64,000 nt of DNA from NCBI GenBank assembly GCA_009924895.1, contig RFQR01000001.1, forward strand, positions 15,575 to 79,574, given 5' to 3'. Both the position numbers and the translations under genes were made by a program. Shown one piece after another: positions 2,692 through 57,583 of the stretch. The notes under the pieces are model-generated. The model ran no database searches. It saw nothing but the letters and a program-made list of their open reading frames with translations, and was not told where the DNA came from. This DNA is from a bacterium (GTDB lineage Bacteria; Patescibacteriota; Minisyncoccia; Phycocordibacterales; UBA2100). Positions within the stretch are counted from its first letter, which is position 1; every line of letters starts with the position of its first letter.

Positions 2692-5004
2692 TTATATTTT
2701 CATTGCCTTAAGACGAAGCGCATTCCCGACCACTGAAACGCTTGAAAGTGCCATTGCGAGTCCGGCGAATACAGGAGATAAGAGCCAACCGAATATCGGA
2801 TAGAAGAGTCCTGCAGCGAGCGGAATCCCCACAATGTTGTAGACGAATGCAAAGAATAGATTTTGCTTTATTCCTCGCATAGTCATCTTTGAGAGTTTGA
2901 TAGCCTTAACAAGCTTCGAGATATCTCCATGGAGGAGTGTGATACCCGCCGACTCAATCGCAACATCAGTGCCTGTCGCCATTGCGATACCCACATCTGC
3001 CTGTGCAAGTGCTGGTGCATCATTTACACCATCACCTGCCATTGCGACTATCTTGCCTTGCGATTGCAGTTCTTTAATTTTCTTTAGTTTGTCTTCGGGC
3101 AGTACCTGAGCGACTACCTCGTCGATGCCGACCTGCTGTGCGATATAAGCGGCAGTATTTTTGTCATCCCCCGTCAGCATGACGGTTCTGATGCCGAGCT
3201 TGTGCAGATTCCGTACGGCTTCAATCGCTTCAGGCTTAATCGCGTCTGAAACGAGAACTGCCGCGAGTATCCTTTCTTTAGTTGCAAGAATGACGGGCGT
3301 CCTCCCGTTTTTCGTTTCTGTTTCAAGCGAGGCGGCATCAAAAGACAGCTGCAAGTCTCTTGCTAGAGCAAGATTTCCTGCAAAATACTCAACACCATCT
3401 ATTACTCCTCTAAGTCCTTTGCCTTTGATGATCTCGAAGCGTTGCGCGCTTTGTATCGTCAGTTTCTTCTCTTTCGCATACGCCACAATAGCGTGAGCAA
3501 TGGGGTGCTCTGATTTGTTTTCGAGCGTCGCGAGAATTGAAGCTATTTCGTCCTCTTTCATATCTGTATAGTTTTGGATTGAGATCAATTCCGGCTTTCC
3601 TTTGGTGATCGTCCCGGTCTTATCAACTACGACAACATTCACTTTGTGGAGCTTTTCGAGCGTCGCGGCATCTTTAATGAGAATGCCTTCTTTTGCGCCC
3701 TTACCTACACCCACAATGATTGCGACTGGGGTGGCGAGCCCAAGAGCACATGGGCACGCAATCACGAGTATCCCAACGAATGAGACAAGCCCGAATGACA
3801 AGGCCTGTGCAAAGCCGAAGTATCCAGTCCCAAGAACAAGCCATGCGCCAAGCGTGACCACCGCAAGAACGAGAACCGTCGGAACAAAAACACTTGAAAT
3901 CTTGTCTGCAAGCGCTTGGATGGGAGCTCTACTCCCTTGGGCTTCTTCCACCATCTTAACGATTTGAGAGAGCATAGTCTCAGAGCCAACTTTTGTCGCC
4001 CTGAACGTGAATGCGCCAGTTGTGTTGATGGTTCCCGCAACGACAGTGTCTCCAGTATTTTTCTCAATAGGAATCGGCTCACCACTTATCATGGCTTCAT
4101 CTACAAAGGACGACCCTTCCGTAAGCACCCCATCGACAGGAATTTTCCCGGCTGGCTTTACTAGAATCAGATCGCCATGCACCACTTGATTCACTGGAAT
4201 TTCTTGCTCTTTTCCGTCACGAATAACTAAAGCTGTTTTTGCTTGAAGGTTGAGAAGCTTTTCAATAGCATCTCCCGTTTTTATCTTTGATCGTGCCTCT
4301 AAATATTTACCGAACGTAATGAAAGCAATAACCACTATCGTCACATCGTAGTAGGTGTACTCAACATTGATAAATTGGCGTAGTGGCTCCTCAAGTGCGG
4401 TGACCGCGATGCTGTAAACATACGCGGCGGTCGTACCGATGCCAATGAGTGTATCCATATTTGCTTTCCCGTAGCGGAAGAAACGATACATGCCCATGAG
4501 ATAGGGCTTACCAACGACAAAGAGCACGTAGGTCGCCATGAGTGGCAGGAGATGATGGAAAAATTCAGACCAAACGTACGGCACGGCCGGGAGTACCTCA
4601 AATTGGGCGAGCATATCCCAACCCATCACGAAAATACTGAAAATAGTGAGTGGAATCACGGAGAGTACCTTTGTCTTCATTTCCTCAACTTCTTTCAGTT
4701 TTACTTCCTTTGATTGCTTCAATCCGAGATGAGCGGCATGTTCATCAGGTGACATGCCCATTTCTGCTGCGGACATTGTGGAATGATCTACAGTGGGAAG
4801 GATGAGAGAGTAACCGAGCGTCTCAATTTTCTTTGAGAGCTCATGGGGATTCGTTTTTTGCTCATCAAAAGATACTTTTGCGGTTTCAGTACCATAGTTC
4901 ACTTCAGCTGAATGAACGCCATCCGTTTTCTTAAAGGTCTTTTCGATCATTGAGGAACATGAAGCGCAGTGCATTCCTTTTACTCTGTACGTTTGTGTGT
5001 GCAT
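2692..5004 (-). CDS. copA: copper-translocating P1B-type ATPase
   Basis: N-terminal HMA motif GMHCASC. Membrane CPC motif IACPCALGLATP. Phosphorylation site VVVDKTGTIT. Hinge motif GDGVNDAPAL. Length 770 aa. Confidence 0.95.
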   Translation of the reverse strand: MHTQTYRVKGMHCASCSSMIEKTFKKTDGVHSAEVNYGTETAKVSFDEQKTNPHELSKKIETLGYSLILPTVDHSTMSAAEMGMSPDEHAAHLGLKQSKEVKLKEVEEMKTKVLSVIPLTIFSIFVMGWDMLAQFEVLPAVPYVWSEFFHHLLPLMATYVLFVVGKPYLMGMYRFFRYGKANMDTLIGIGTTAAYVYSIAVTALEEPLRQFINVEYTYYDVTIVVIAFITFGKYLEARSKIKTGDAIEKLLNLQAKTALVIRDGKEQEIPVNQVVHGDLILVKPAGKIPVDGVLTEGSSFVDEAMISGEPIPIEKNTGDTVVAGTINTTGAFTFRATKVGSETMLSQIVKMVEEAQGSRAPIQALADKISSVFVPTVLVLAVVTLGAWLVLGTGYFGFAQALSFGLVSFVGILVIACPCALGLATPVAIIVGVGKGAKEGILIKDAATLEKLHKVNVVVVDKTGTITKGKPELISIQNYTDMKEDEIASILATLENKSEHPIAHAIVAYAKEKKLTIQSAQRFEIIKGKGLRGVIDGVEYFAGNLALARDLQLSFDAASLETETKNGRTPVILATKERILAAVLVSDAIKPEAIEAVRNLHKLGIRTVMLTGDDKNTAAYIAQQVGIDEVVAQVLPEDKLKKIKELQSQGKIVAMAGDGVNDAPALAQADVGIAMATGTDVAIESAGITLLHGDISKLVKAIKLSKMTMRGIKQNLFFAFVYNIVGIPLAAGLFYPIFGWLLSPVFAGLAMALSSVSVVGNALRLKAMKI

Positions 5005-12289: not shown

Positions 12290-13987
12290 ATGCTTCAATC
12301 GGAGGCGCTTTCGGTATTAAAAACAGGAGTCAACGTTTTTCTCACCGGTGAACCAGGGAGTGGCAAGACACATACGATCAATGCATATGTCGAGTATGCG
12401 CGCTCCTGTGGCATCGAGCCTTCGATTACCGCTTCGACAGGGATTGCTGCAACGCATGTTGGTGGCATGACTATTCATGCGTGGAGTGGCATTGGGGTAC
12501 GCAAGGATTTATCTGCATACGACCTTGACGCGATTGCGGGCAATAAAAATGTCCACAGCCGGGTCCGACATGCGCAGATACTCATTATTGATGAAATTTC
12601 TATGCTTTCCGCACGGACACTTGATATGGTAGATACGGTCTGCAGGGAAGTACGCGGGAATCAGAGCCCGTTTGGCGGCCTTCAAGTCATTCTGGTAGGA
12701 GATTTTTTCCAATTGCCACCGGTCTCGCGCGCAGAAGCGGACGACGAAGGACAGATACGGATAGCTGAAGAAAGACGAGAAAAGTTTGCCTACGAATCGC
12801 GTGCGTGGGCAGACCTTAATCCGCTGGTCTGCTATTTGTCAGAGCAGCATCGCCAAGTAGATGGTCCGTTTCTTGAAATCCTCTCAACGCTTCGTCGTGC
12901 GACTTTCGGCGAAGATCAGAAAAAGATTTTGCGCACACGCTATGCGCGCGTAGCGCCAGAGGGAGTCACGCAATTGTACGCGCACAATGCGAATGTGGAC
13001 GTGATAAACATGAAAGAACTCGAGAAGCTGTCGGGAAAGGTGGTTGAATTTGGTATGCACGGGAAAGGCCCCGAGAAGGTAGTTAACTCTTTGAGGCGCA
13101 GTTGTTTGTCGCCCGAAAAGCTGCTTCTCAAAGTCGGGGCGCGCGTCATGTTTACTAAAAACGATCTCGCCCCACAAAAATATGTAAATGGAACTCTCGG
13201 TACTGTGACAGGCTTTGCCGATAGTGGTTTTCCTGTGGTAGAGACTCGAGCGGGGACGGTGATTGCAGAACCAGATGAATGGCACGTGGAAGATGGAGGG
13301 CGCATCATAGCGCGGATTATGCAGGTACCCCTTCGTCTCGCATGGGCAATAACGGTACATAAAAGTCAGGGAATGTCACTCGATGCAGTACATATGGACC
13401 TCTCGAGCACGTTTGAATACGGACAAGGATATGTGGCGCTTTCGCGTGCGCGCACGCTCGCAGGTCTTTCGATTGCCGGACTCAATCAACGTGCAACCGA
13501 AGTCCATCCTGATGTGTTGCAAGAAGATGAGAAGTTTCGCGAAAAGTCAGAAAAAGTACAAAAGCATTTTCAAAGCGTGTCCGTGGCAGAAATAGAAACT
13601 CTGCACGCAAATTTTATTCGCGCTTGTGGTGGCAAGTTCGGTGCGGGAAGGAATGTGAAAGAAAAGCAGCAGCCCGGTTCCTCGCTCGAAATCACTCTCA
13701 AATTAATTAAAGCAGGGAATGGTATTGCAGAAATCGCCAAAGAGCGAGAACTGAAAGTAGCTACCATTATTGACCATCTAGAACAGCTCAAAGATTTGAG
13801 AAGGCTTGATATGGCTCGTGATTGTGCGCACCTTACTAAACCAAAACACCTCGAAAAGATGCAGGAAGCATTGCTCGCTACTGCCGATGAATCTGGAAAC
13901 ATGCCACTCTCGCCCGCCCGTGCATTTTTAGGTGAACGCTATTCATTTGACGACCTTCGTCTCGCCAGACTTTTTTTTAAGGAGTAG
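12290..13987 (+). CDS. PIF1/RecD-family helicase with a C-terminal HTH domain
   Basis: Walker A GEPGSGKTH. IIDEISML. VILVGDFFQLPPV. C-terminal helix-turn-helix tail. Confidence 0.85.
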   Translation: MLQSEALSVLKTGVNVFLTGEPGSGKTHTINAYVEYARSCGIEPSITASTGIAATHVGGMTIHAWSGIGVRKDLSAYDLDAIAGNKNVHSRVRHAQILIIDEISMLSARTLDMVDTVCREVRGNQSPFGGLQVILVGDFFQLPPVSRAEADDEGQIRIAEERREKFAYESRAWADLNPLVCYLSEQHRQVDGPFLEILSTLRRATFGEDQKKILRTRYARVAPEGVTQLYAHNANVDVINMKELEKLSGKVVEFGMHGKGPEKVVNSLRRSCLSPEKLLLKVGARVMFTKNDLAPQKYVNGTLGTVTGFADSGFPVVETRAGTVIAEPDEWHVEDGGRIIARIMQVPLRLAWAITVHKSQGMSLDAVHMDLSSTFEYGQGYVALSRARTLAGLSIAGLNQRATEVHPDVLQEDEKFREKSEKVQKHFQSVSVAEIETLHANFIRACGGKFGAGRNVKEKQQPGSSLEITLKLIKAGNGIAEIAKERELKVATIIDHLEQLKDLRRLDMARDCAHLTKPKHLEKMQEALLATADESGNMPLSPARAFLGERYSFDDLRLARLFFKE

Positions 13988-14028
13988 GCAGTCTAGCTTT
14001 ATCGAGTCCCTCAATAGTGAATACACTA

Positions 14029-14066
14029 TGTACCATAATATGTCCGACCGGACATCACATGGTACA
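14029..14066. repeat. 38-bp nested palindrome, copy 1 (TGTACCAT-aat-ATGTCCG-AC-CGGACAT-cac-ATGGTACA)
   Basis: Read from the sequence. It ends 9 bp upstream of the paaX-like start codon. Confidence 0.7.
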
Positions 14067-14074
14067 CTAAGAAT

Positions 14075-14662
14075 ATGGAAGGTTTAGAAAAAAGAACAGC
14101 TAAGAAAGTGAGGCGTAGAAAGATTCAAGATGGAATAATGGCGGTACTGTTGGGGATGACTGCGATAGGACTTATGTTTACTGCACCAAATGCACTCCGA
14201 TTGCTCAAAAAGTTTGATCCGGATCTGGGGCGCAAACGAAACCCCGGAACGCGCGTTCGTCAGGCGATGAAAAGACTAGAAGGGCGAGGGTTGGTTGTAG
14301 GAATAGAAGAAAACGGTACGACTCGCTTTGTTTTGACCGAGAAGGGAAAGAGGTATGCCGAGCGGCTTGCTGAAGCAGAGTCACTGCATATCCCTATACC
14401 AAAAAGGTGGGATGGAAGGTGGCGTGTGGTGATTTTCGACATCTGGGAACGCCGAAGGGAAGTAAGAAGACAATTTAGAAACATGTTGAAGAAGATAGGA
14501 TTTGTTCTGGTGCAAGATAGTGTTTGGGTGTACCCCTACGATTGCGAAGAGGTTATTGCATTTATTCGCACGCATTTGCGACTTGGAAAGGGTGCTCTGT
14601 ATATGATTGCCGATGGAATAGAAGGAGACAAGAAGTTACGTGAACATTTTAACCTTTCATAG
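14075..14662 (+). CDS. PaaX-family transcriptional regulator (short form) with a strongly Cas2-like central domain
   Basis: The N-terminus resembles the PaaX wHTH (RLEGRGLVVGIEENGTTRFVLTEKGKR versus E. coli PaaX RLNKEGWLDVSRIGRRSFYSLSDKGLR). WDGRWRVVIFDIWERRREVRRQFRNMLKKIGFVLVQDSVWVYP matches PaaX WDGKWLLLL... and the Cas2 consensus VLVxYDIxxxRRRxKVxKxLxxYGxRVQxSVFEC. Confidence 0.6.
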   Translation: MEGLEKRTAKKVRRRKIQDGIMAVLLGMTAIGLMFTAPNALRLLKKFDPDLGRKRNPGTRVRQAMKRLEGRGLVVGIEENGTTRFVLTEKGKRYAERLAEAESLHIPIPKRWDGRWRVVIFDIWERRREVRRQFRNMLKKIGFVLVQDSVWVYPYDCEEVIAFIRTHLRLGKGALYMIADGIEGDKKLREHFNLS

Positions 14663-14716
14663 GTTATTTGTGAGAGGATTTATCATACTTTTCGTATTTT
14701 GCTCTATTGTTCTAAC

Positions 14717-14754
14717 TGTACCATAGCATGTCCGACCGGACATACTATGGTACA
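14717..14754. repeat. 38-bp nested palindrome, copy 2 (TGTACCAT-agc-ATGTCCG-AC-CGGACAT-act-ATGGTACA)
   Basis: Arms are identical to copy 1 and only the 3-nt spacers differ. It lies between the paaX-like stop and the HD gene start. Confidence 0.7.
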
Positions 14755-14798: not shown

Positions 14799-15344
14799 AT
14801 GATACCGACACGAGAAGAGGCGCAGAAGCTTTTGTTTGAACACGTGAAAGACGAATATCAGCGTCACCACGCGCTCATGGTAGGTACCGCACTTGGTGAG
14901 TATGGAAAAAAGTTTGGCGAAAATGCAGATCTCTGGTTTATGACCGGTTATTTGCACGATATTGATTTTGAAGAGCATCCAACAGAGCATCCAGCGCGGT
15001 CATTGCAGTGGTTTAAGGAATGGGGGTACCCAGTAGAACTTATTCAAGCAGTTGAAGTGCATGCACTTGGGTACAATGGTTTTACGACCGAGCCACAGAG
15101 CAAACTCGATGCTGCGATTATTGCGTGTGATGAGGTTTGCGGCATCTTCTACGCGTACTCAAAAGTAAATCCATGCAAATACGGCGACATGAAAGCATCT
15201 TCGATTTTGAAGCGTATTCGCGAAGTAAACTTCGCTCCAAAGATAAGTAGGGGAGATATTCACTATGGCTGCGAGAAGTTAGGTGTGACGATTGACGAGC
15301 ACGTCAACAATTTGATTGGATTTTTTAAGGAGTCAGGAATCTAG
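14799..15344 (+). CDS. HD-domain metal-dependent phosphohydrolase
   Basis: H...HD pattern (QRHHALMVGTALGEYG ... GYLHDIDFEEH). Confidence 0.7.
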   Translation: MIPTREEAQKLLFEHVKDEYQRHHALMVGTALGEYGKKFGENADLWFMTGYLHDIDFEEHPTEHPARSLQWFKEWGYPVELIQAVEVHALGYNGFTTEPQSKLDAAIIACDEVCGIFYAYSKVNPCKYGDMKASSILKRIREVNFAPKISRGDIHYGCEKLGVTIDEHVNNLIGFFKESGI

Positions 15345-37240: not shown

Positions 37241-37856
37241 AACACGCGGTTCTCAGAATTCCGTAACGGGAGTCTGAGAAAGGGCGTGCGGTGGATGCCT
37301 AGACTGAAAAAGGCGATGAAAGACGCGGCATGGCGGCGATACGCTTCGGGGAGGTGCTCAGCAACCTTTGATCCGGAGATTTCTGAATGGGGAAACCCCA
37401 TCAAGTAACCCTTGATGACTCTCTTATTAACGTAAGAGTAGAGCAGACCTTGGGAAGTGAAACATCTCAGTACCAAGTGGAAAAGAAAACAAATGTTATT
37501 CCCTTAGTAGCGGCGAGCGAAACGGGAGGAGCCCAAACTCAGCCACATAGAGAGGGACTAGTAATGTTAGCCACTAGCGACTAGTGAAATGCAGCAATGC
37601 ATCCACTAATCTCTATACCCTAACACCTAGTCACTGTCTATGAGGATGGGGGTTATAAGGCTACAGCGCTAGTAATAGGTAGAGTCACAAATTGCTTAGT
37701 TAGTGGAATTGTCTGGAAAGACAAGCCCCAGCGGGTAATAGCCCCGTACACGAAAACAAAGCAACTCTATGGCTGTAGTTCTTGAGTAACTCGAGACACG
37801 AATAGCTCGGGTGAATTCGCCAGAACTAACTGGTAAGGCTACATACTTTTTCAGAT

Positions 37857-37899
<43 letters not shown>

Positions 37900-39425
37900 G
37901 GTAAGGGGAGTGAAATAGAACTGAAACCGCATGTCTACAAGGAGTCGAAGAGGGTGCAAATCCTCGACGGCGTGCCTATTGAAGAATGAGCCAACGAGTT
38001 AATGCATACGGTTTGGTTAAGGGGTAATCCCCCCGAGCCGCAGCGAAAGCGAGTGTGAATAGCGCGTTTATCGTATGTATTAGACCCGAAGCTAGGTGAG
38101 CTACCCATGGACAGGCTGAACCTTCTAGAAATAGGAGGGGAGGGCCGAACTCGTAGATAGTGCAAAATCTTGGGATGATCTGTGGGTTGGAGTGAAAAGC
38201 TTATCGAACCTAGTAATAGCTGGTTCTCTCCGAAAGAGCTTTCGGGCTTGCGTCGTATGTTTCTGCAGGGGGTAGAGCACTGGAAGAAGCGGATAGGTCG
38301 AAAGACCACTGCCTCTATCAAACTCCGAATACCTGCAGCCACAGTACGGCAGTTAGTCGGTGGGGGCGAAGCTCCACTCGACAAAAGGGAAACAGCCCAG
38401 ACCGCCATTTAAGGTCCCAAAATCTACGCTCAGTGCAAAACAAGGAGGTGGAATTTCATAGACAGTCAGGATGTTGGCTTAGAAGCAGCCACCATTCAAA
38501 GAAAGCGTAACAGCTCACTGACTTAGAGATTCTGCGCCACAAATGATCGGGGCTTAAGCGTAGTACCGAAGATGCGGATTTGTACTTTACTGTACAAGTG
38601 GTAGGAGAGCGTTTTGATTGCGATGAAGGTAAAGGGGTGACCCATGCTGGAGCGATCGGAAGTGAAAATGTTGGCACGAGTAACCGCAATGCATGTGAGA
38701 TTCATGCACGCCGAAAGATCAAGGTTTCCTTCGCACTGGAGATCAGCGAAGGGTTAGTCGGTCCTAAGCCATTGGCGACAGCCGCAGGCGATGGATATAC
38801 GGTTAATATTCCGTGACTTGATTATGGTGCGATGGAGTGACGGAGTGAAATAGTTCAAGCGTGCAATTGGATGTGCGCTGCTTTGTAACAGACGCTGCCT
38901 AGGCAAATCCGGGCAGCATACATCTGGTACAAGGCAAGACGGGGAGGCTTCGGCCGAACTTAATTTGAGCGAAGACGCTTCCAAGAAAAACTTCTAAGCA
39001 TAACCATAACCAATCCGTACCAAAACCGACACAGGTGATCAGGTCGAGTAGACCAAGGCGAACGAGTGAGAGGTCCTCAAGGAACTCGGCAAAAAAGCGG
39101 CCGTAACTTCGGGATAAGGCCTGCCTTTCGCAAGAAAGGCCGCAGTTAATGATTCCCAGGCAACTGTTTACCAAAAACACAGCTCCCTGCAAACTCGCAA
39201 GAGGAAGTATAGGGGGTGATGCCTGACCAATGCCGGAAGGTCAAATACGGGCGTTGCCCAGCTCTAATTTTTTGAACCAGTTTTGCTGGTCAAGCACTGA
39301 ATAGCTCACTTAATCACATTAAGTTGAGAGTAGGTGTTTCGAGAAATTAGGGCTGGGTGGTGACTTGTATAAGCCCCGGTCAATGTCGGCGATAACTATA
39401 ATCGTCCTAAGGTAGCGAAATTCCT

Positions 39426-40533
39426 AGAAGACTGGGACTTGTACCTGTAAGGGTGCAAGCAAATTCTGCTATATGCGGGAAAGTCCGGTAGTATCTGGAG
39501 CTACTTATGTACAGTCAAACGATGCCAATTTAGCATTGTCTGGTAAAATAAGTACATGAGTAAAAATGCTTCCAGTGGTTCCGACCAAACTAAAATTGAA
39601 TCGGAAGCCGGATAATCCGCAGGAAACGTTGAATGAAAACTTTTACTATTCAGGATTCTTTGCAGCCGAGATGACGTGTTCCGTCATCAAAGCGGCAAAT
39701 TACAATCCGGTAGGACATTACTACTTTGCCGTTGATATCACTGTGACTAATGCTGATAAGGCATTGCTGCAGGAAGTCAACCAAGTTGTGATGAAAGGAG
39801 GAGGGATAATCAGTTCGGTGAAAGGAGCGTATAACCTAAGTGTGCGAGGTAAAAATCGCGTGCATGTTGTACTCGACTTCTTGCAACGGTACCCGATTAT
39901 CATTGGTGATCTCGCAAAAAATCGCGTTGCGCTTTTGAGAGAAGCATTCAGCTATCTCGAAGAACATCGCGGTGCAGGCGAGCACCAGAAAAAGATTGAA
40001 GTTATGGATGGAATACGAAAGAAACTACGATTGATCAAAGAAATCGGCATAGTTGATACTTCGTACCCATTAGAGAAACTTGACAGAGATGTGATTGGAC
40101 ATTTCTTGGCTGGAATTCTCGACGGTGAGGGTTCGTTCGGATTCAAAACGAGCGGTACTCACCAAGAACCATTCTTTGCAGTAGCTATGAAAGATCGAAA
40201 GATTATCAAGTTATGCAGAGATTTTCTTCAGTACGGCAACGTACGAAAGAGAAAAGATGGTGTGCACCATTACGAAATCAATCGAAAACAAATCCTTCAG
40301 AAAGTTTGCAAAATATTTCTCACACAGTATCCGCTCAAACATGCGCGGCAACAAGAGAGATTGCGAATAGTTCAACGGCTCCTCAACGACTACACGCAGA
40401 ATCACCACAAACGTGGTGAGTGATATAGTCTGATCTGTATGGCGACATACAGAGTGTGGCTCGCGCCACACCGCTTTGCTAACATTTTAGCGAAGTCAAA
40501 CTTTTGCACCAGCAAAAGTTAAAGTAACAGAAT
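39426..40533 (+). mobile_element. intron in 23S rRNA (E. coli position about 1917-1931, GCGAAATTCCT^TGTCGGGTAAG), presumably group I
   Basis: Exon 1 ends at ...GGTAGCGAAATTCCT (39421-39425) and exon 2 resumes at TGTCTGGTAAGTTCAGACGCGCACGAATGG (about 40534). The insert carries a LAGLIDADG ORF. Confidence 0.7.
39566..40423 (+). CDS. LAGLIDADG homing endonuclease (intron-encoded)
   Basis: Motif HFLAGILDGEGSFGF. 285 aa. It lies inside the 23S insertion. Confidence 0.85.
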   Translation: MLPVVPTKLKLNRKPDNPQETLNENFYYSGFFAAEMTCSVIKAANYNPVGHYYFAVDITVTNADKALLQEVNQVVMKGGGIISSVKGAYNLSVRGKNRVHVVLDFLQRYPIIIGDLAKNRVALLREAFSYLEEHRGAGEHQKKIEVMDGIRKKLRLIKEIGIVDTSYPLEKLDRDVIGHFLAGILDGEGSFGFKTSGTHQEPFFAVAMKDRKIIKLCRDFLQYGNVRKRKDGVHHYEINRKQILQKVCKIFLTQYPLKHARQQERLRIVQRLLNDYTQNHHKRGE

Positions 40534-41326
40534 GTGTCTGGTAAGTTCAGACGCGCACGAATGGTATAATGACTTGGGAACTGTCTCGAGGACTTGCTCG
40601 GTGAAAATACAAGGGCGGTGAAGATGCCGCCTTCCTGCAGCTAGACGAAAAGACCCCAGAAGCTTTACTGTAGTTTGGTATTGGGATTACGGGTGCACCG
40701 CGTAGCGTAAGTGGGAGACTTTGAAGCAGAGGTTTCGGCCTCTGTGGAGTCGTCAATGCAACACCACTCCTTGTTTCTGTAATTTCTAACTTCTCAAGAG
40801 AAACTTGAGAAAGACAGTACTTGATGGGCAGTTTCGGTGGGGCGCTGTCCTCCTAAAAAGTAACGGAGGAGCATATTAAGGTCATCTAGCCGCGAATGGA
40901 AACCGTGGCGATAGTGCATTGGCATAAGATGGCTTAACTGCGAGTCGTACGTGACAAGCAGGCGCGAAAGCGGATCAAAGTGAACCGACAGTTCGCATTA
41001 GATGCGACTGAAGATTAACGGATAAAAGTTACTCTGGGGATAACAGGCTGGTTTCGCCTAAGAGTCCAAATCGACGGCGAAGTTCGGCACCTCGATGTCG
41101 GCTCATCTCAGCGCGGGGCTGGAGAAGGTCCCAAGCGTATGGCTGTTCGCCATTTAAAGAGGTACGTGAGCTGGGTTCAAACCGTCGTGAGACAGGTTGG
41201 TCTTAATCTGCTGTAGGCGTTGATTCTTGAGGAGATTTGTTTCTAGTACGAGAGGACCGAAATGAACTGACCTCTGGTCTGGGGGCTGTTACGCCAGTAG
41301 CACCGCCCCGTAGCTATGTCGGGATT

Positions 41327-41359
<33 letters not shown>

Positions 41360-41718
41360 GACTCCAAGATTAGGAATCGTTATAGATTCGTGAGAGATGA
41401 TCACGTTGATAGGCACTAGGTGTACGCACAGTAATGTGTTCAGCCGAGGTGTACTAATGAATCGACAGAACTCCCGTTCTGGATTGTGAGAATACGTGTT
41501 CTATTTTTTCCTGAATTTGTGCTTTCGATTAGTCCGACAAAAATGTGTACCATTTTCGTCGGATATGTCGCCCAACAAAACTTTTTTAAAGTTTGGTCGG
41601 GCATGCTCTTCAGTTGCCAGCGAACAGTGCTGCGACCGATTTTTCATACTCGTAGAGTATAGAAAAATGGAAGTGCCCTCGTGGTGCAATTGTTCTTTGT
41701 AAAGCATTTGGAATGTGG

Positions 41719-41846: not shown

Positions 41847-41952
41847 TCTGGTGTTTTATCGGAGGGGTCACACCCGTTCTCATTCCGAACACGGCAGTTA
41901 AGCCCTCTTGAGCCGATGGTAGTCGTAAGGCAAGAGTAGGTAGACGCCAGAA
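41847..41952 (+). rRNA. rrf: 5S rRNA
   Basis: Helix I is TCTGGTG/CGCCAGAA. The conserved CCGAACACGG...GATGGTAGT...AGAGTAGG segments are present. Confidence 0.8.
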
Positions 41953-46611: not shown

Positions 46612-47541
46612 ATGACACGAAACGTTTTGGTGACGGGGGGAGCTGGGTTTATTGGCTCGCATATCGTCGACGCGCTTCTTGTGCGAGGCGATAGTGTGCG
46701 TGTGATTGATGATGAAAGCTCTGGAAAGAAGCAAAACTTGAAACATACAATTGATAAGATTGAGTACATAAACGGATCTATCACTGATCGCGATCTTCTC
46801 AAGCGGGTAATGAATGGTGTAGATATCGTATTCCACCTTGCAGCAATCGGCTCGGTCCCGCGCTCGGTGGATGCTCCTGAACCATCTCACGATGCGAACA
46901 TCACCGGTACCTTAAATGTACTCTGGGCCGCGAAGCAGGCAGGAGCGAAGCGTGTTGTGCATTCCTCCTCGAGCTCAGTCTATGGTAACAATCCAACTCT
47001 TCCCAAACGAGAAGAGGATCTCGGCACCGTACTCTCACCCTATGCACTCCAGAAAAAGGCGGCTGAGGAATACACGCTTTTGTTTTACCGGCTTTACGGA
47101 CTCGAGACGGTAGTACTTCGCTATTTCAACGTGTATGGTCCGCGCCAAGATCCGAATTCTCAGTATGCCGCTCTTATTCCAAAATTTATCGCAGCTATGA
47201 AAGCAGGAAAGCAGCCAACGATAAACGGCGACGGATCAGCATCGCGCTCATTTACCTATGTTTCTGATGTGGTCGATGCAAATCTTGCCGCGGCAGAAAG
47301 TGAATCGGCTGTAGGGGAGGCGATGAATATTGGCGGTGCAGTCCGTACAACGGTCAATGAATTTGTCACCGCACTCAATACCGTGCTTGGTACTGCGATT
47401 ACTCCCATCTATGGGCCTGTTCGCGCAGGAGATATTCCTCACAGCATGGCTGATTTAAGTAAGGCAAGTAAGCTCATCGGCTATCAACCAAAAATTTCGT
47501 TCGAAGAAGGTTTGAAAAAAACAGTTGCGTCATTTACATGA
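46612..47541 (+). CDS. NAD-dependent sugar epimerase/dehydratase (UDP-hexose 4-epimerase-like)
   Basis: VLVTGGAGFIGSH Rossmann motif. YxxxK catalytic motif (YALQKKAAE). Confidence 0.85.
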   Translation: MTRNVLVTGGAGFIGSHIVDALLVRGDSVRVIDDESSGKKQNLKHTIDKIEYINGSITDRDLLKRVMNGVDIVFHLAAIGSVPRSVDAPEPSHDANITGTLNVLWAAKQAGAKRVVHSSSSSVYGNNPTLPKREEDLGTVLSPYALQKKAAEEYTLLFYRLYGLETVVLRYFNVYGPRQDPNSQYAALIPKFIAAMKAGKQPTINGDGSASRSFTYVSDVVDANLAAAESESAVGEAMNIGGAVRTTVNEFVTALNTVLGTAITPIYGPVRAGDIPHSMADLSKASKLIGYQPKISFEEGLKKTVASFT

Positions 47542-48302
47542 TTATCGATGGGAAAAAAATAGCGGACGATATCTATCGTTCTTTAGTGCTTCCACGTTCT
47601 CTCACGCTGGGTATTGTGGTATGTGGTACAGATCCAGTCATCGAATCGTTTGTAAAAATTAAAGAGCGCACGGCGCAACGACTTCGTGTCCGGCTCGAAC
47701 GCGCGGTGCTACCTGAAAGTGCAACGACTAAAGAGGTGCTCAAAGCCCTTCTGTCTCTCAAAGAGTGTGATGGGGTTATCGTGCAGCTCCCTCTTCCTCA
47801 ACAGGTGAATGTGAGTGCTGTCCTTGAAATGATTCCCGCCCACCAAGATGTAGATGGCGTCTCGTCTCATCCTTATGTGCTTGCGCCCGTTGCGGGGGCG
47901 GTTGCGCAGATACTCGCACATTCGCATGTGAGTATACAAGGCAAAAAGGCGGTGGTTGTGGGAGACGGAAGGCTCGTGGGAAGGCCAGTTGCAGAATTGT
48001 TGCGGAAAGAAGGTGCTATCGTAACAACGCTCACAAAAGAGCGAGGCTCGCTCAAAGAATTACGAGCCACAGATATTATCGTTCTTGGCGCAGGAGAGCC
48101 AGGTCTTGTGGTGCCGGAGATGATTTCTGGAGGCGCTGTTCTCATTGATGCAGGAACAAGCGAGCAGGGAGGAAGAGTAGCGGGGGATGCTGATCCTGCA
48201 TGTGCTAAAAAATGCTCGGTCTTTACGCCGGTGCCAGGCGGCGTGGGTCCAGTTGCTGTCGCAATGATTTTCAAAAATCTCTCTACTTTAGCAGAAAGGT
48301 AA
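47538..48302 (+). CDS. folD: bifunctional methylene-THF dehydrogenase/cyclohydrolase
   Basis: TPVPGGVGPVAVAMIF C-terminal FolD motif. A short variant of 254 aa. Confidence 0.8.
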   Translation: MIIDGKKIADDIYRSLVLPRSLTLGIVVCGTDPVIESFVKIKERTAQRLRVRLERAVLPESATTKEVLKALLSLKECDGVIVQLPLPQQVNVSAVLEMIPAHQDVDGVSSHPYVLAPVAGAVAQILAHSHVSIQGKKAVVVGDGRLVGRPVAELLRKEGAIVTTLTKERGSLKELRATDIIVLGAGEPGLVVPEMISGGAVLIDAGTSEQGGRVAGDADPACAKKCSVFTPVPGGVGPVAVAMIFKNLSTLAER

Positions 48303-48430
48303 TTTTAAAATTTCTAGCTTTCTAATGTGTTGCTATTTATTCACGACCGTGAATTAATAGCAACATGCATTTTTTGAGCGTGCGGTAGAAATAAAAAAGG
48401 CACGCGGAAGTTATCCGCGCGCCTTTACAC

Positions 48431-49306
48431 TCATGTCATGATGCATCGCTTTTCAAGAGCGTCCGTTTCGTTCTGATGAGCGAGATACCATGCAACATCG
48501 TTGATACTGAGCGGGATGTGCACAAACGAAACCAAGGCGAATCGATCCTCTGCGCCGGGTACTATGCGAGCGTGTTCTTTCACGCCATGCGGTGTCCCGA
48601 AGCCAAAAACCCCGCGGGTTACCGCAGCAAACTTTTTTCCGGGGAAGATGGCAATGGTATCGTCCGCTGTTTCTTTTGCTTCGTGCACTTCGCGATTTGG
48701 ATCGAAGATGCGAAGCCCCTGCCGAGTCGATTTCCAGTGCACGGTACATGCTGAGCGATCAATGTGTACCGTTGCGTCATCCGCAGTTTCTGCTCGCGGC
48801 AGATAGCGTAATACTCGAGTGACACACTTACCTGTGTTTACGCGAGGACCGAGAGCACCGCTCGGAGATGCAAGAGGATGCTTGCGATCAAACTCATCAG
48901 CCCATAGCTGTACAACAGCTCGCGCTGCGGCGCATGTATCGTTAAGGGTGCGCAGAAACTTCTCAAAGAAGATAATCGGCGCATCGGTCTTGAAGAGGTT
49001 GCGCATGGTTTCGCCACGATCGAGATAATAGAAAAACCACTTTTGCTCTCGAACGTTTCGACGCCACAAACCGCTATCGTATTCCCATCCGGGGACATCA
49101 TCAGGCCCAAGACTACTTGATTGAAATAGTGCTGCGAGATCGTTATTTTCTGTCATCCCGGTCATGCCGCATGTGACGTGCTGCATGGCAGATGCGAGAA
49201 ACGTTGGTGTGATAGAACATTCCAAAAACCCGCGTTTTTGCATGTGCGCTATTGGGTCGTGAGGCAGTGACTCAGTGAGGTGATGGAGTGTCTGTGCGTG
49301 GTTCAT
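48431..49306 (-). CDS. hypothetical protein, possibly an Fe(II)/2-oxoglutarate oxygenase-like fold
   Basis: HID ... H ... RFALVSF spacing resembles HxD/H/RxS. The support is weak. Confidence 0.3.
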   Translation of the reverse strand: MNHAQTLHHLTESLPHDPIAHMQKRGFLECSITPTFLASAMQHVTCGMTGMTENNDLAALFQSSSLGPDDVPGWEYDSGLWRRNVREQKWFFYYLDRGETMRNLFKTDAPIIFFEKFLRTLNDTCAAARAVVQLWADEFDRKHPLASPSGALGPRVNTGKCVTRVLRYLPRAETADDATVHIDRSACTVHWKSTRQGLRIFDPNREVHEAKETADDTIAIFPGKKFAAVTRGVFGFGTPHGVKEHARIVPGAEDRFALVSFVHIPLSINDVAWYLAHQNETDALEKRCIMT

Positions 49307-55513: not shown

Positions 55514-56012
55514 AGAGGGAACGAGAGGGCCTCGGCGCACAGCGCCGGGGCCCTCATTCTGTGCCACATATTCGTTTGACAAATATTAGGAAACCGTCTA
55601 TCATGCCCCCACTCGCCGGTGGCGGTTTTTTTCTGGAAAGTAAGAAGCGAAAGCGACTATACTTTCCTGAACCCCGTTCTACTTTTGCTGGGCACAGCGA
55701 AGACGAGCTAAAACTTGTTTGTCGCGTTCGTTTGGATTGAAAACGTACTGTGGCATGCAAAAGTAGAACTGGGGTACTGCACGACGAGGTTCTTTGAAAA
55801 CTGAATACACACAATAAACACACACAACGTCCGCACGCATTTATGTGTGGCGGACATGCAAGTAACACAAGAAAAGTAAGTAATAGCAATTCTGGAACAA
55901 ATAGAGAGAACGTTTCCTAGGAGGAAATGTTCAACATTCTTTTGTTCCGTTCACACGAGCCCGAACTCGCAAGAGTTTAGGGCAAAACAGAATAGAACTC
56001 GTTTCTATTCTT

Positions 56013-57466
<1,454 letters not shown>

Positions 57467-57583
57467 AATCGGATAGGCCGCCCTAAACCCTTCGGGGTCG
57501 GGTCAGGTCCACCGGTCGATTTGAGTGTCTCGATCGAGCACTCAAGAGAGAGACGTCCTTCTTTAACAGACGTCGGACAGATT

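Follow-up and report, generated by a model that had tools for sequence, protein, structure and literature searches.

A 64-kb stretch from the genome of an ultra-small, Parcubacteria-type member of the Patescibacteria (contig RFQR01000001.1 of assembly GCA_009924895.1), referred to as the window, contains a gene for a 195-aa PaaX-like protein that stands between two 38-bp palindromes. We suggest that this open reading frame (ORF) encodes a compact DNA-binding protein, that the two palindromes are its predicted double-stranded DNA sites, and that gene and sites together form an autoregulated cassette. From the sequences, we consider this explanation fairly probable, although well short of certain. 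It is carried by the fold of the protein, by a site architecture that is found family-wide, and by the co-variation between protein and DNA. The analysis covers the window and 84 homologous loci, and is based on sequences and models only.

The gene and its two palindromes

The locus consists of the following features, given in window positions:

14029..14066, no strand: upstream 38-bp palindrome, the proposed cognate site, 8 nt ahead of the ATG
14075..14662, + strand: ORF of the PaaX-like 195-aa protein (winged helix-turn-helix, wHTH, plus a Cas2-like PaaX_M domain)
14126..14389, + strand: part coding for the wHTH, residues ~18-105, with the recognition helix at ~57-70 and the wing at ~74-87
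14402..14644, + strand: part coding for the Cas2-like (PaaX_M) domain, residues ~110-190, from Pfam, alignment and model
14717..14754, no strand: downstream 38-bp palindrome, the second copy, 54 nt past the stop codon and 44 nt before the ORF of an HD-domain hydrolase

The upstream palindrome reads TGTACCATAATATGTCCGACCGGACATCACATGGTACA and the downstream palindrome reads TGTACCATAGCATGTCCGACCGGACATACTATGGTACA. Each half-site consists of an outer box TGTACCAT, a variable spacer of 3 nt and an inner box ATGTCCG, and the dyad has the centre CGACCG. The two copies are the same at 32 of 32 arm and centre positions, while the spacers differ at 5 of 6 positions. The identity of the arms, with spacers nearly saturated with differences, points to selection on the copies and not to a recent duplication. 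A preliminary description of this DNA, made from the sequence alone, had noted the palindrome pair around the ORF and argued for selection on its arms; both statements are confirmed.

A pattern search allowing up to 3 mismatches finds only these two sites in the 64 kb, where shuffled sequences lead to an expectation of 0.00, and half-site searches of the window reveal no additional cognate copies. A chance origin was thus rejected, given the 0.00 shuffle matches and a site on at least one side of the gene in 77/84 loci. A generic repetitive extragenic palindromic (REP)-like element was likewise rejected, since there is no further copy in 64 kb. When the metagenome was scanned with the window motif, the only match was a related palindrome of another organism (loci L081 and L082, discussed below). 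An extended inverted repeat of 52 nt around the window copies was considered as well, and is treated as chance; the flanks of 32 loci are at background similarity.

A palindrome-gene-palindrome layout across the family

An initial palindrome scan was made in the best 80 of at least 588 loci that contain a relative of the gene (one genome per GTDB species), and most of these 80 loci have long, locus-specific palindromes outside both gene ends. The sites were then defined by a centre C[GTC][AG][CT][CAG]G, at least 13/19 paired arm positions and at least 6/8 paired outer-box positions. With this detector, an upstream site is found in 66/84 loci and a downstream site in 63/84; both sites are present in 52/84 loci and none in 7/84. 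The background, i.e., 568 kb elsewhere within the same 84 loci, contains 10 sites, about half of which are GC-rich false positives. Thus, there are approximately five genuine solitary sites in 568 kb, or ~1 per 100 kb. The two nearest homologues (57% and 53% identical) have the same layout, and so does a distant one (26% identity over the aligned positions). The palindrome-gene-palindrome layout is therefore a rule of the family and not a one-off. The literature collection searched contains no paper with both PaaX and Cas2, and none of the 12 papers ranked first for PaaX with three names of the Candidate Phyla Radiation (CPR) mentions PaaX; the bookend layout appears to be undescribed.

The comparison of the two copies within each locus reveals the extent of the sites. 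Counting from the dyad, with -1 as the position adjoining it, the between-copy identity is 0.74-0.96 at positions -19 to -11, 0.54-0.75 at positions -10 to -7, and 0.76-1.0 at positions -6 to -2. Beyond -20 it falls to about 0.3, which is the background, i.e., the sites are sharply bounded 38-mers. Four elements make up a half-site: the outer box, which is specific to the lineage; a tract rich in A/T (positions -12 to -9); the inner box, which varies; and a triplet on the dyad side. The conserved bases adjoining the dyad are C(-3), G/T(-2) and A/G(-1), and the centres are either CGRYCG, where R is independent in each half, or CTATAG. Across the family the central hexamer is conserved while the arms are divergent.

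The sites frame the gene almost symmetrically. The median distance from dyad to ATG is 36.5 nt and the median distance from stop codon to dyad is 35 nt, which places the sites ~17 nt outside each gene end. The copies show no helical phasing relative to each other at 10.5 bp (p ~0.4), and the phasing at 10.0 bp is weak and unconvincing (p ~0.01 before correction over four periods).

A compact winged-helix protein with a Cas2-like domain

Residues 110-180 of the protein match the Pfam family PF20803, 'PaaX protein central Cas2-like domain', with E=4.7e-19. The NCBIfam model of cas2, TIGR01573, scores above its cutoff (26.6 vs 24.5), the Cas2 family PF09827 scores below it (23.1 vs 23.8 bits), and the PaaX model TIGR02277 scores far below it (37.8 vs 264.55 bits); besides these there are weak wHTH matches. 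There is no match to PF07848 at E<=0.1; the wHTH fold is present by structure comparison, and residues 61-119 align to the PaaX structure 8a39. PF08223 (PaaX_C) has no match in this protein, which stops at residue 195. When the C-terminal domain was compared with the PDB as a single sequence, no useful match was obtained.

The AlphaFold2 model, built from 37 homologues, has a predicted local distance difference test score (pLDDT) of 80, and the C-terminal domain exceeds 90 save for one block at 86. The order of the elements is helix-helix-helix-beta-beta, a linker helix, and beta-alpha-beta-beta-alpha-beta. Structurally, residues ~18-105 are closest to the winged-helix dimers of the PadR, MarR and AspA types. 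The C-terminal domain has a Cas2-type ferredoxin-like fold in which the Asp that closes beta-1 is present. A compact protein of a wHTH and a Cas2 fold, related to PaaX, had been proposed from the sequence, and the PF20803 match and the AlphaFold2 model bear this out. However, the accompanying claim that a Cas2 fold in a DNA-binding regulator would be new biology has to be given up, since the domain is already in Pfam as PF20803 and the PaaX structure 8A39 exists.

In the alignment of 37 sequences the residues W112, D113, R117, F121, D122, E125, R131, R135, Q147, S149, W151, P154 and Y155 are conserved; E125 varies in a few relatives beyond this alignment. Two hallmarks of Cas2 are kept, F-D122-I where beta-1 ends and Q147-x-S149-V-W, while chain 3kfw has V-T and E-G-V-W at these places. 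The preliminary description held that the Cas2 motifs are better kept here than in PaaX, and this is true in relation to 3kfw, which is the sole PaaX-like structure aligned across the segment of the Cas2 motifs.

Residues 21-37 (IMAVLLGMTAIGLMFTA, window 14135-14185), located between the first wHTH helix and a conserved APNA motif, are unusually hydrophobic and have a pLDDT of 53-71. Because some subfamilies are polar in this region, e.g. ARLTAQSGRLLFV, it is probably part of the core or a beta-strand and not a membrane anchor.

The family is large. A profile search of 1.84 billion representative proteins gives 652 clusters (at 50% identity) with E<=1e-30 and 3590 with E<=1e-10, and the top matches are nearly all 180-210 aa long. 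The best 80 of the at least 588 loci all belong to Patescibacteria or Parcubacteria-type genomes. Among these 80 loci, at least nine genomes have two or three paralogues, which are ~40-50% identical within a genome and are each accompanied by a different palindrome, as expected of regulators that avoid cross-talk. The window has a single family gene, according to a hidden Markov model scan of its six-frame translation. An origin from phages, plasmids or defence systems was considered and rejected: tblastn searches of phage and plasmid collections gave no match, 2.9 million viral contigs gave only one partial match, and PADLOC gave weak Cas2 models only.

The public names of the family members alternate between 'PaaX' and 'CRISPR-associated endonuclease Cas2'. 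For instance, the proteins P0011 and P0119 have the latter as their NCBI name because the TIGR01573 score slightly exceeds its cutoff, and the locus of P0011 contains no cas genes. Patescibacteria genomes are probably misannotated systematically in this respect. The window itself has no CRISPR (clustered regularly interspaced short palindromic repeats) array and no match to a CRISPR-DR family in its 64 kb, which agrees with the preliminary description. The annotated loci of homologues are likewise free of cas genes, a cas1 gene is absent among the called genes of loci L083-L086, and the ORFs of the window were not all screened for cas1.

Co-variation between the protein and its predicted sites

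Proteins with an equal recognition-helix signature have an equal outer box, including those with different inner boxes and centres:

recognition helix DPxQRLxETASRL: outer box ACTTGTTT
recognition helix RFNYQAKxALGRL: outer box TATCCA(C/A)A
recognition helix xxxRRIxQA: outer box TGTTCC
recognition helix RRPSYxNxVVERL: outer box ATGT(T/A)AAA

The relationship between protein segments and DNA segments was quantified by partial Mantel tests with 300 permutations:

recognition helix (56-72) and outer box: partial rho 0.25, reached in 0/300 permutations
recognition helix (56-72) and inner box: partial rho -0.003, reached in 164/300
Cas2-like domain (110-192) and inner box: partial rho 0.10, reached in 0/300
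Cas2-like domain (110-192) and outer box: partial rho 0.01, reached in 97/300

The idea that the palindromes are operators of this protein, already put forward in the preliminary description, is thus backed by co-variation across the whole family.

At the dyad, the columns most informative on base -2 are residues 125, 148 and 126, all of which lie beside the Cas2-type Asp. A motif search over 236 proteins finds Glu at residue 125 in 233 of them, and the only exceptions among the 84 loci are L052, L056 and L070. The first two have H125 and belong to separate lineages, neither of which is the nearest relative of the other. The centre is CCATGG in L056, and L052 combines a CCATGG copy with a CCATAG copy; the nearest relatives of both have E125 and CG or CT centres. 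Three further variants of residue 125 were retrieved afterwards as a test. With Q125 (P0248; L070 also has Q125) the centre is a non-palindromic CAGGGG, with K125 (P0380) it is an asymmetric stretch of 12 nt that is inverted between both copies, and with the conservative D125 (P0344) the CGACCG centre is retained. Residue 148 is Asp in 22/22 members of the CTATAG centre class, and N148 never occurs with CTATAG.

In locus L095 the sites of the E125K variant lie at 1457-1492 and ~2068-2105 and have palindromic outer arms around the 12-nt centre TACCAATCGCGT. A rearrangement between L095 and L096 was considered and rejected, since the sequences are 99.7% identical and only the gene calls for one protein differ.

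These patterns suggest that the Cas2-like domain recognises the DNA bases of the dyad, and that E125 behaves as a base-reading residue. The sites of E125 proteins have G or T at -2, opposite C or A, both of which bear an amino group; with H125 the base is C and the partner is G. From this we infer that the carboxylates of D122 and E125 may accept hydrogen bonds from base amino groups near the dyad.

A proposed autoregulated repressor and its alternatives

By analogy with Cas2 and PaaX, the protein would form a homodimer through its Cas2-like domain; the paper on the PaaX structure is said to regard the central domain as a dimerisation motif. One dimer would lie along a single face of the helix, with all contacts on that side. 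Its two recognition helices would read the outer boxes TGTACCAT and ATGGTACA, which are ~31 bp apart, and the wings would cover the minor groove in the A/T-rich stretch at 9-12 bp from the dyad. The dyad itself would be occupied by the Cas2-like dimer, which would read the inner box and the central hexamer, i.e., C-G/T-R on one side and Y-C/A-G on the other.

As the upstream site abuts the start codon, its occupancy should repress the gene itself, much as PaaX shuts off its own promoter Px. The downstream site could be a second anchor, either for a repression loop or as a roadblock that shields the cassette against transcription from its surroundings; repression, looping and roadblock are all what we infer from the arrangement. 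In the window, the downstream site may also control the HD hydrolase gene, located 44 nt further on. A response to phenylacetyl-CoA would not be expected, since the C-terminal effector domain of PaaX is missing. The span of the site, which matches that of the PaaX operator, was counted in favour of the palindromes being the protein's own sites.

Some findings do not fit easily with a simple autoregulated repressor. No sigma-70-like promoter was detected at the upstream site. The downstream copy is found about equally often with a convergent next gene (20 loci) and with a co-directional one (22 loci). Due to this indifference to the orientation of the neighbour, the downstream copy cannot in general be explained by control of an HD-type gene; the control of the HD hydrolase suggested in the preliminary description is plausible at the window locus but does not extend to the family. 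Furthermore, the solitary sites with clear flanks (window 48346, L003 and L017) are all located between convergent genes, and one palindrome brackets a 12.7-kb operon of surface proteins in L081, as another does with a tRNA gene in L074. The invariant D122, at the metal-binding position of Cas2, would also fit a retained catalysis. Finally, the Cas2-like domain is only weakly linked to the inner box (rho 0.10), and shared ancestry is not fully removed by the co-variation tests.

It can be speculated that the unit is a selfish or mobile cassette, although we regard this as unlikely. The palindromes would then be sites of recombination or cleavage, with arms and a 6-bp core as in dif/lox, and the protein would be a site-specific nuclease or nickase, or an accessory factor of recombination, with the dyad as its place of action. 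Excision and inversion of the whole palindrome-gene-palindrome unit would then be possible, as would its insertion at solitary palindromes. This would agree with the invariance of D122, with a central hexamer that is kept while the arms diverge, and with the highly variable contexts of the gene, whose 388 neighbouring ORFs fall into 294 clusters; even the two closest homologues (57% and 53%) are in unrelated neighbourhoods. Convergent contexts are enriched among the loci with both copies (14/42, compared with a background of 13.5%), the solitary copies are placed between genes that converge, palindromes also bracket other units in L081 and L074, and in L031 a direct duplication of 58 bp includes the 3' end of the gene. 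However, no genome contains two alike copies, as the paralogues are only ~40-50% identical, and there is no target-site duplication; in 32 loci the flanks match at 7.6/24 positions, in direct and inverted comparison alike. The diverged spacers between the boxes imply that both copies are old. Less weight can be given to the loci of related helicases, as no close relative lacking the cassette is among them: four orthologues of the helicase encoded upstream of the window cassette, ~60% identical, are followed by different genes and have neither an empty nor a solitary site, and six contigs with an identical helicase, from the same organism, have one arrangement, shown by one of them to match the window. 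The lack of phage and plasmid matches, with one partial match in 2.9 million viral contigs, and the base-reading behaviour of E125 argue in the same direction. We also know of no recombinase chemistry tied to the Cas2 fold. A bolder version, which we consider a long shot, has the Cas2-like domain as a sequence-reading and possibly still catalytic head on the dyad, with cassettes that nick, excise or duplicate at the centre of the repeat. If true, the family would be a living analogue of a Cas2-type protein first joining palindromic repeats, before the CRISPR adaptation modules existed.

Alternatively, the complexes could be boundary marks of transcription units that work as roadblock terminators or as insulators, or they could organise the chromosome, and the protein's own gene would merely be one among the bracketed units. 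The symmetry of the sites, ~17 nt beyond both gene ends, their occurrence at 3'-3' gene junctions, the bracketed operon (L081) and tRNA gene (L074), and the independence of the downstream copy from the orientation of the neighbour all agree with such boundary elements. With ~1 solitary site per 100 kb, though, there are too few sites to bound most transcription units, and there are many specificities per genome instead of one global factor, so we give little credence to this explanation. The preliminary description had also proposed RNA stem-loops, which, at both ends of an mRNA (5' and 3'), could act as stabiliser, terminator or processing site, possibly cut by a Cas2-like RNase, as some Cas2 proteins have been reported to be RNases. 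If transcribed, the palindromes would indeed form strong hairpins (-21 to -28 kcal/mol, z -3.5 to -6.7). However, the arm mismatches comprise 35 G:T and 35 A:C, i.e., without strand bias, and they cluster 3-9 bp from the dyad, inside the arms, with few in the outer box; selection for a stable stem should lead to the reverse. In addition, the copies keep the sequence itself, beyond mere complementarity, and together these points indicate selection on DNA and not on an RNA stem. The outer box also tracks the recognition helix of the wHTH. Few downstream copies have a directly adjoining T-run, and a scan for intrinsic terminators, i.e., GC-rich hairpins with a T-run, calls neither of the window palindromes. 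RNA hairpins are thus very improbable as the function of the palindromes.

Neighbouring genes, solitary palindromes and unusual loci

The neighbours of the cassette in the window encode a Pif1-like helicase, the HD hydrolase and a protein with a phosphoribosyltransferase domain. The HD hydrolase is a possible local, co-regulated neighbour and not a conserved partner across the family:

14799..15344, + strand: ORF of the HD-domain hydrolase (Pfam HD, E=4.9e-5)

A direct repeat of 24 nt (TTTTTTAAGGAGT..., 20/24 identical) is found at window 13973-13996 and 15321-15344. One copy is located at the 3' end of the helicase ORF (...FFKE*) and the other at that of the HD ORF (...FFKESGI*), and they enclose the entire segment of palindrome, gene, palindrome and HD ORF. 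The copy in the helicase begins exactly where the conservation of its orthologues ends (LRLARLF). This repeat could be the att-like scar of a 1.35-kb insertion, or chance.

Another palindrome with a like architecture lies elsewhere in the window:

48328..48365, no strand: solitary 38-bp palindrome of another sequence, with the centre CGACCG

Its sequence is TGTTGCTATTTATTCACGACCGTGAATTAATAGCAACA, with a TGT... outer box, and the ORFs on its two sides, 47538-48302 (+) and 48431-49306 (-), are convergent. A T-run and a second hairpin of the conventional kind (48396-48426) come after it. No family gene is near window 48328-48365, and the palindrome is either the site of a paralogue encoded beyond the window or a relic.

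The palindrome TTTACCATAAAATGTCCG[AC/GC]CGGACATTTTATGGTAAA, related to that of the window, occurs at 108-146 and 12777-12815 in L081 and at ~4340-4380 and ~4990-5030 in L082. In L082 it flanks a distant family member, and L081 is another contig from the same metagenome. The 12.7-kb cluster of L081 encodes secreted or surface-type proteins (camelysin-like, SpaA-like, LTD and DUF11), a signal peptidase and BacA; the region 150-1880 has no long ORF and contains several GC-rich repeated elements. In L074 one palindrome occurs three times, at 1000-1043, ~1402-1449 and ~2047-2092. Between copies 1 and 2 there is a tRNA-Leu gene, encoded on the other strand (1177-1259), and between copies 2 and 3 there is the family gene. 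In L031 the palindromes are within a direct repeat of 58 bp, at ~3908-3965 and ~4547-4604, that is 98% identical. This repeat takes in the last ~20 nt of the coding sequence, and the palindrome overlaps the stop codon. It looks as if the gene end and the downstream copy had been duplicated upstream.

Elsewhere in the window, a 23S rRNA match at 37267-41478 spans 4212 nt, against 2925 nt in the model, i.e., it has ~1.3 kb of insertions. The 5S rRNA gene is at 41847-41952, and the 16S rRNA gene at 56010-57467, 14.5 kb downstream of the 23S-5S pair, instead of preceding it in an operon, and thus unlinked to it. Unlinked rRNA genes are typical of CPR genomes.

Significance

To our knowledge, few CPR transcription factors have known targets. 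Here, a large family, often with several copies per small genome, has a candidate site that can be read from each locus, which provides a specificity table of recognition helix against outer box. The reading of the dyad by a domain with a Cas2 fold, as suggested here, exceeds what we found recorded for PaaX, and it bears on the possible roles of Cas2-type proteins outside CRISPR. Both the family-wide cassette and the evidence that the Cas2-like domain reads the dyad appear to be undescribed so far. The annotation of some members as 'CRISPR-associated endonuclease Cas2' is misleading.

Comparison with known systems

Several known systems resemble the palindrome-gene-palindrome cassette in some respects. 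The sites dif, loxP and FRT, and pdif of Acinetobacter, likewise have inverted arms around a 6-bp centre, and genes are bracketed by two such sites. Here, however, there is no linked recombinase and no sign of excision or inversion, and the arms are longer and bipartite. An insertion sequence or transposon would have a target-site duplication and near-identical genomic copies, neither of which is found here.

The REP-associated tyrosine transposases (RAYTs) are also similar, as a single-copy gene is flanked by cognate palindromes (both copies in 52/84 loci here), the classes of palindromes are specific for paralogues, and the extragenic extras are often located between convergent genes. In contrast to RAYTs, the protein is not an HUH/Y1 transposase, and there is no His-hydrophobic-His among its conserved residues. 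Nor do the palindromes occur as tens to hundreds of scattered copies: there is no extra cognate copy in 64 kb, and only ~5 solitary sites in 568 kb. The dimers of PadR, MarR and AspA bind palindromic DNA as well. They dimerise via helices and cover 16-26 bp, whereas we would expect the dimer here to form through the Cas2-like domain, on a site of 38 bp.

Also among the closest known systems is PaaX, a repressor that responds to phenylacetyl-CoA (E. coli, Pseudomonas; TIGR02277; PDB 8A39, 3L09 and 3KFW) and has the same wHTH, WDG+W segment and Cas2-like PaaX_M domain. The operator of E. coli PaaX is TGATTC-N27-GAATCA, 39 bp long, and PaaX represses its own promoter Px (PMC9493321). The same review treats the central domain of PaaX as a dimerisation motif (PMC9493321). 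The window site is TGTACC-N26-GGTACA, 38 bp, so that the inverted outer hexamers of the two are similarly spaced, by sequence geometry only. It differs from the PaaX operator in being a near-perfect palindrome with a conserved hexamer at the dyad, and in its presence on both sides of the gene. The protein is shorter (195 aa vs ~310), lacks PaaX_C, and scores below the equivalog cutoff of TIGR02277. No paa genes are found nearby, and the homologues occur in unrelated housekeeping contexts. It also keeps the Cas2-type Asp and the Q-x-SVW motif, both of which are lacking in the PaaX-like chain 3kfw.

With Cas2 (TIGR01573, PF09827) the window protein shares the fold and the motifs, but here they are fused to a wHTH. 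The acidic corner of Cas2 co-varies here with a DNA base near the dyad, which suggests that in this family it may serve in sequence reading, either instead of catalysis or besides it.

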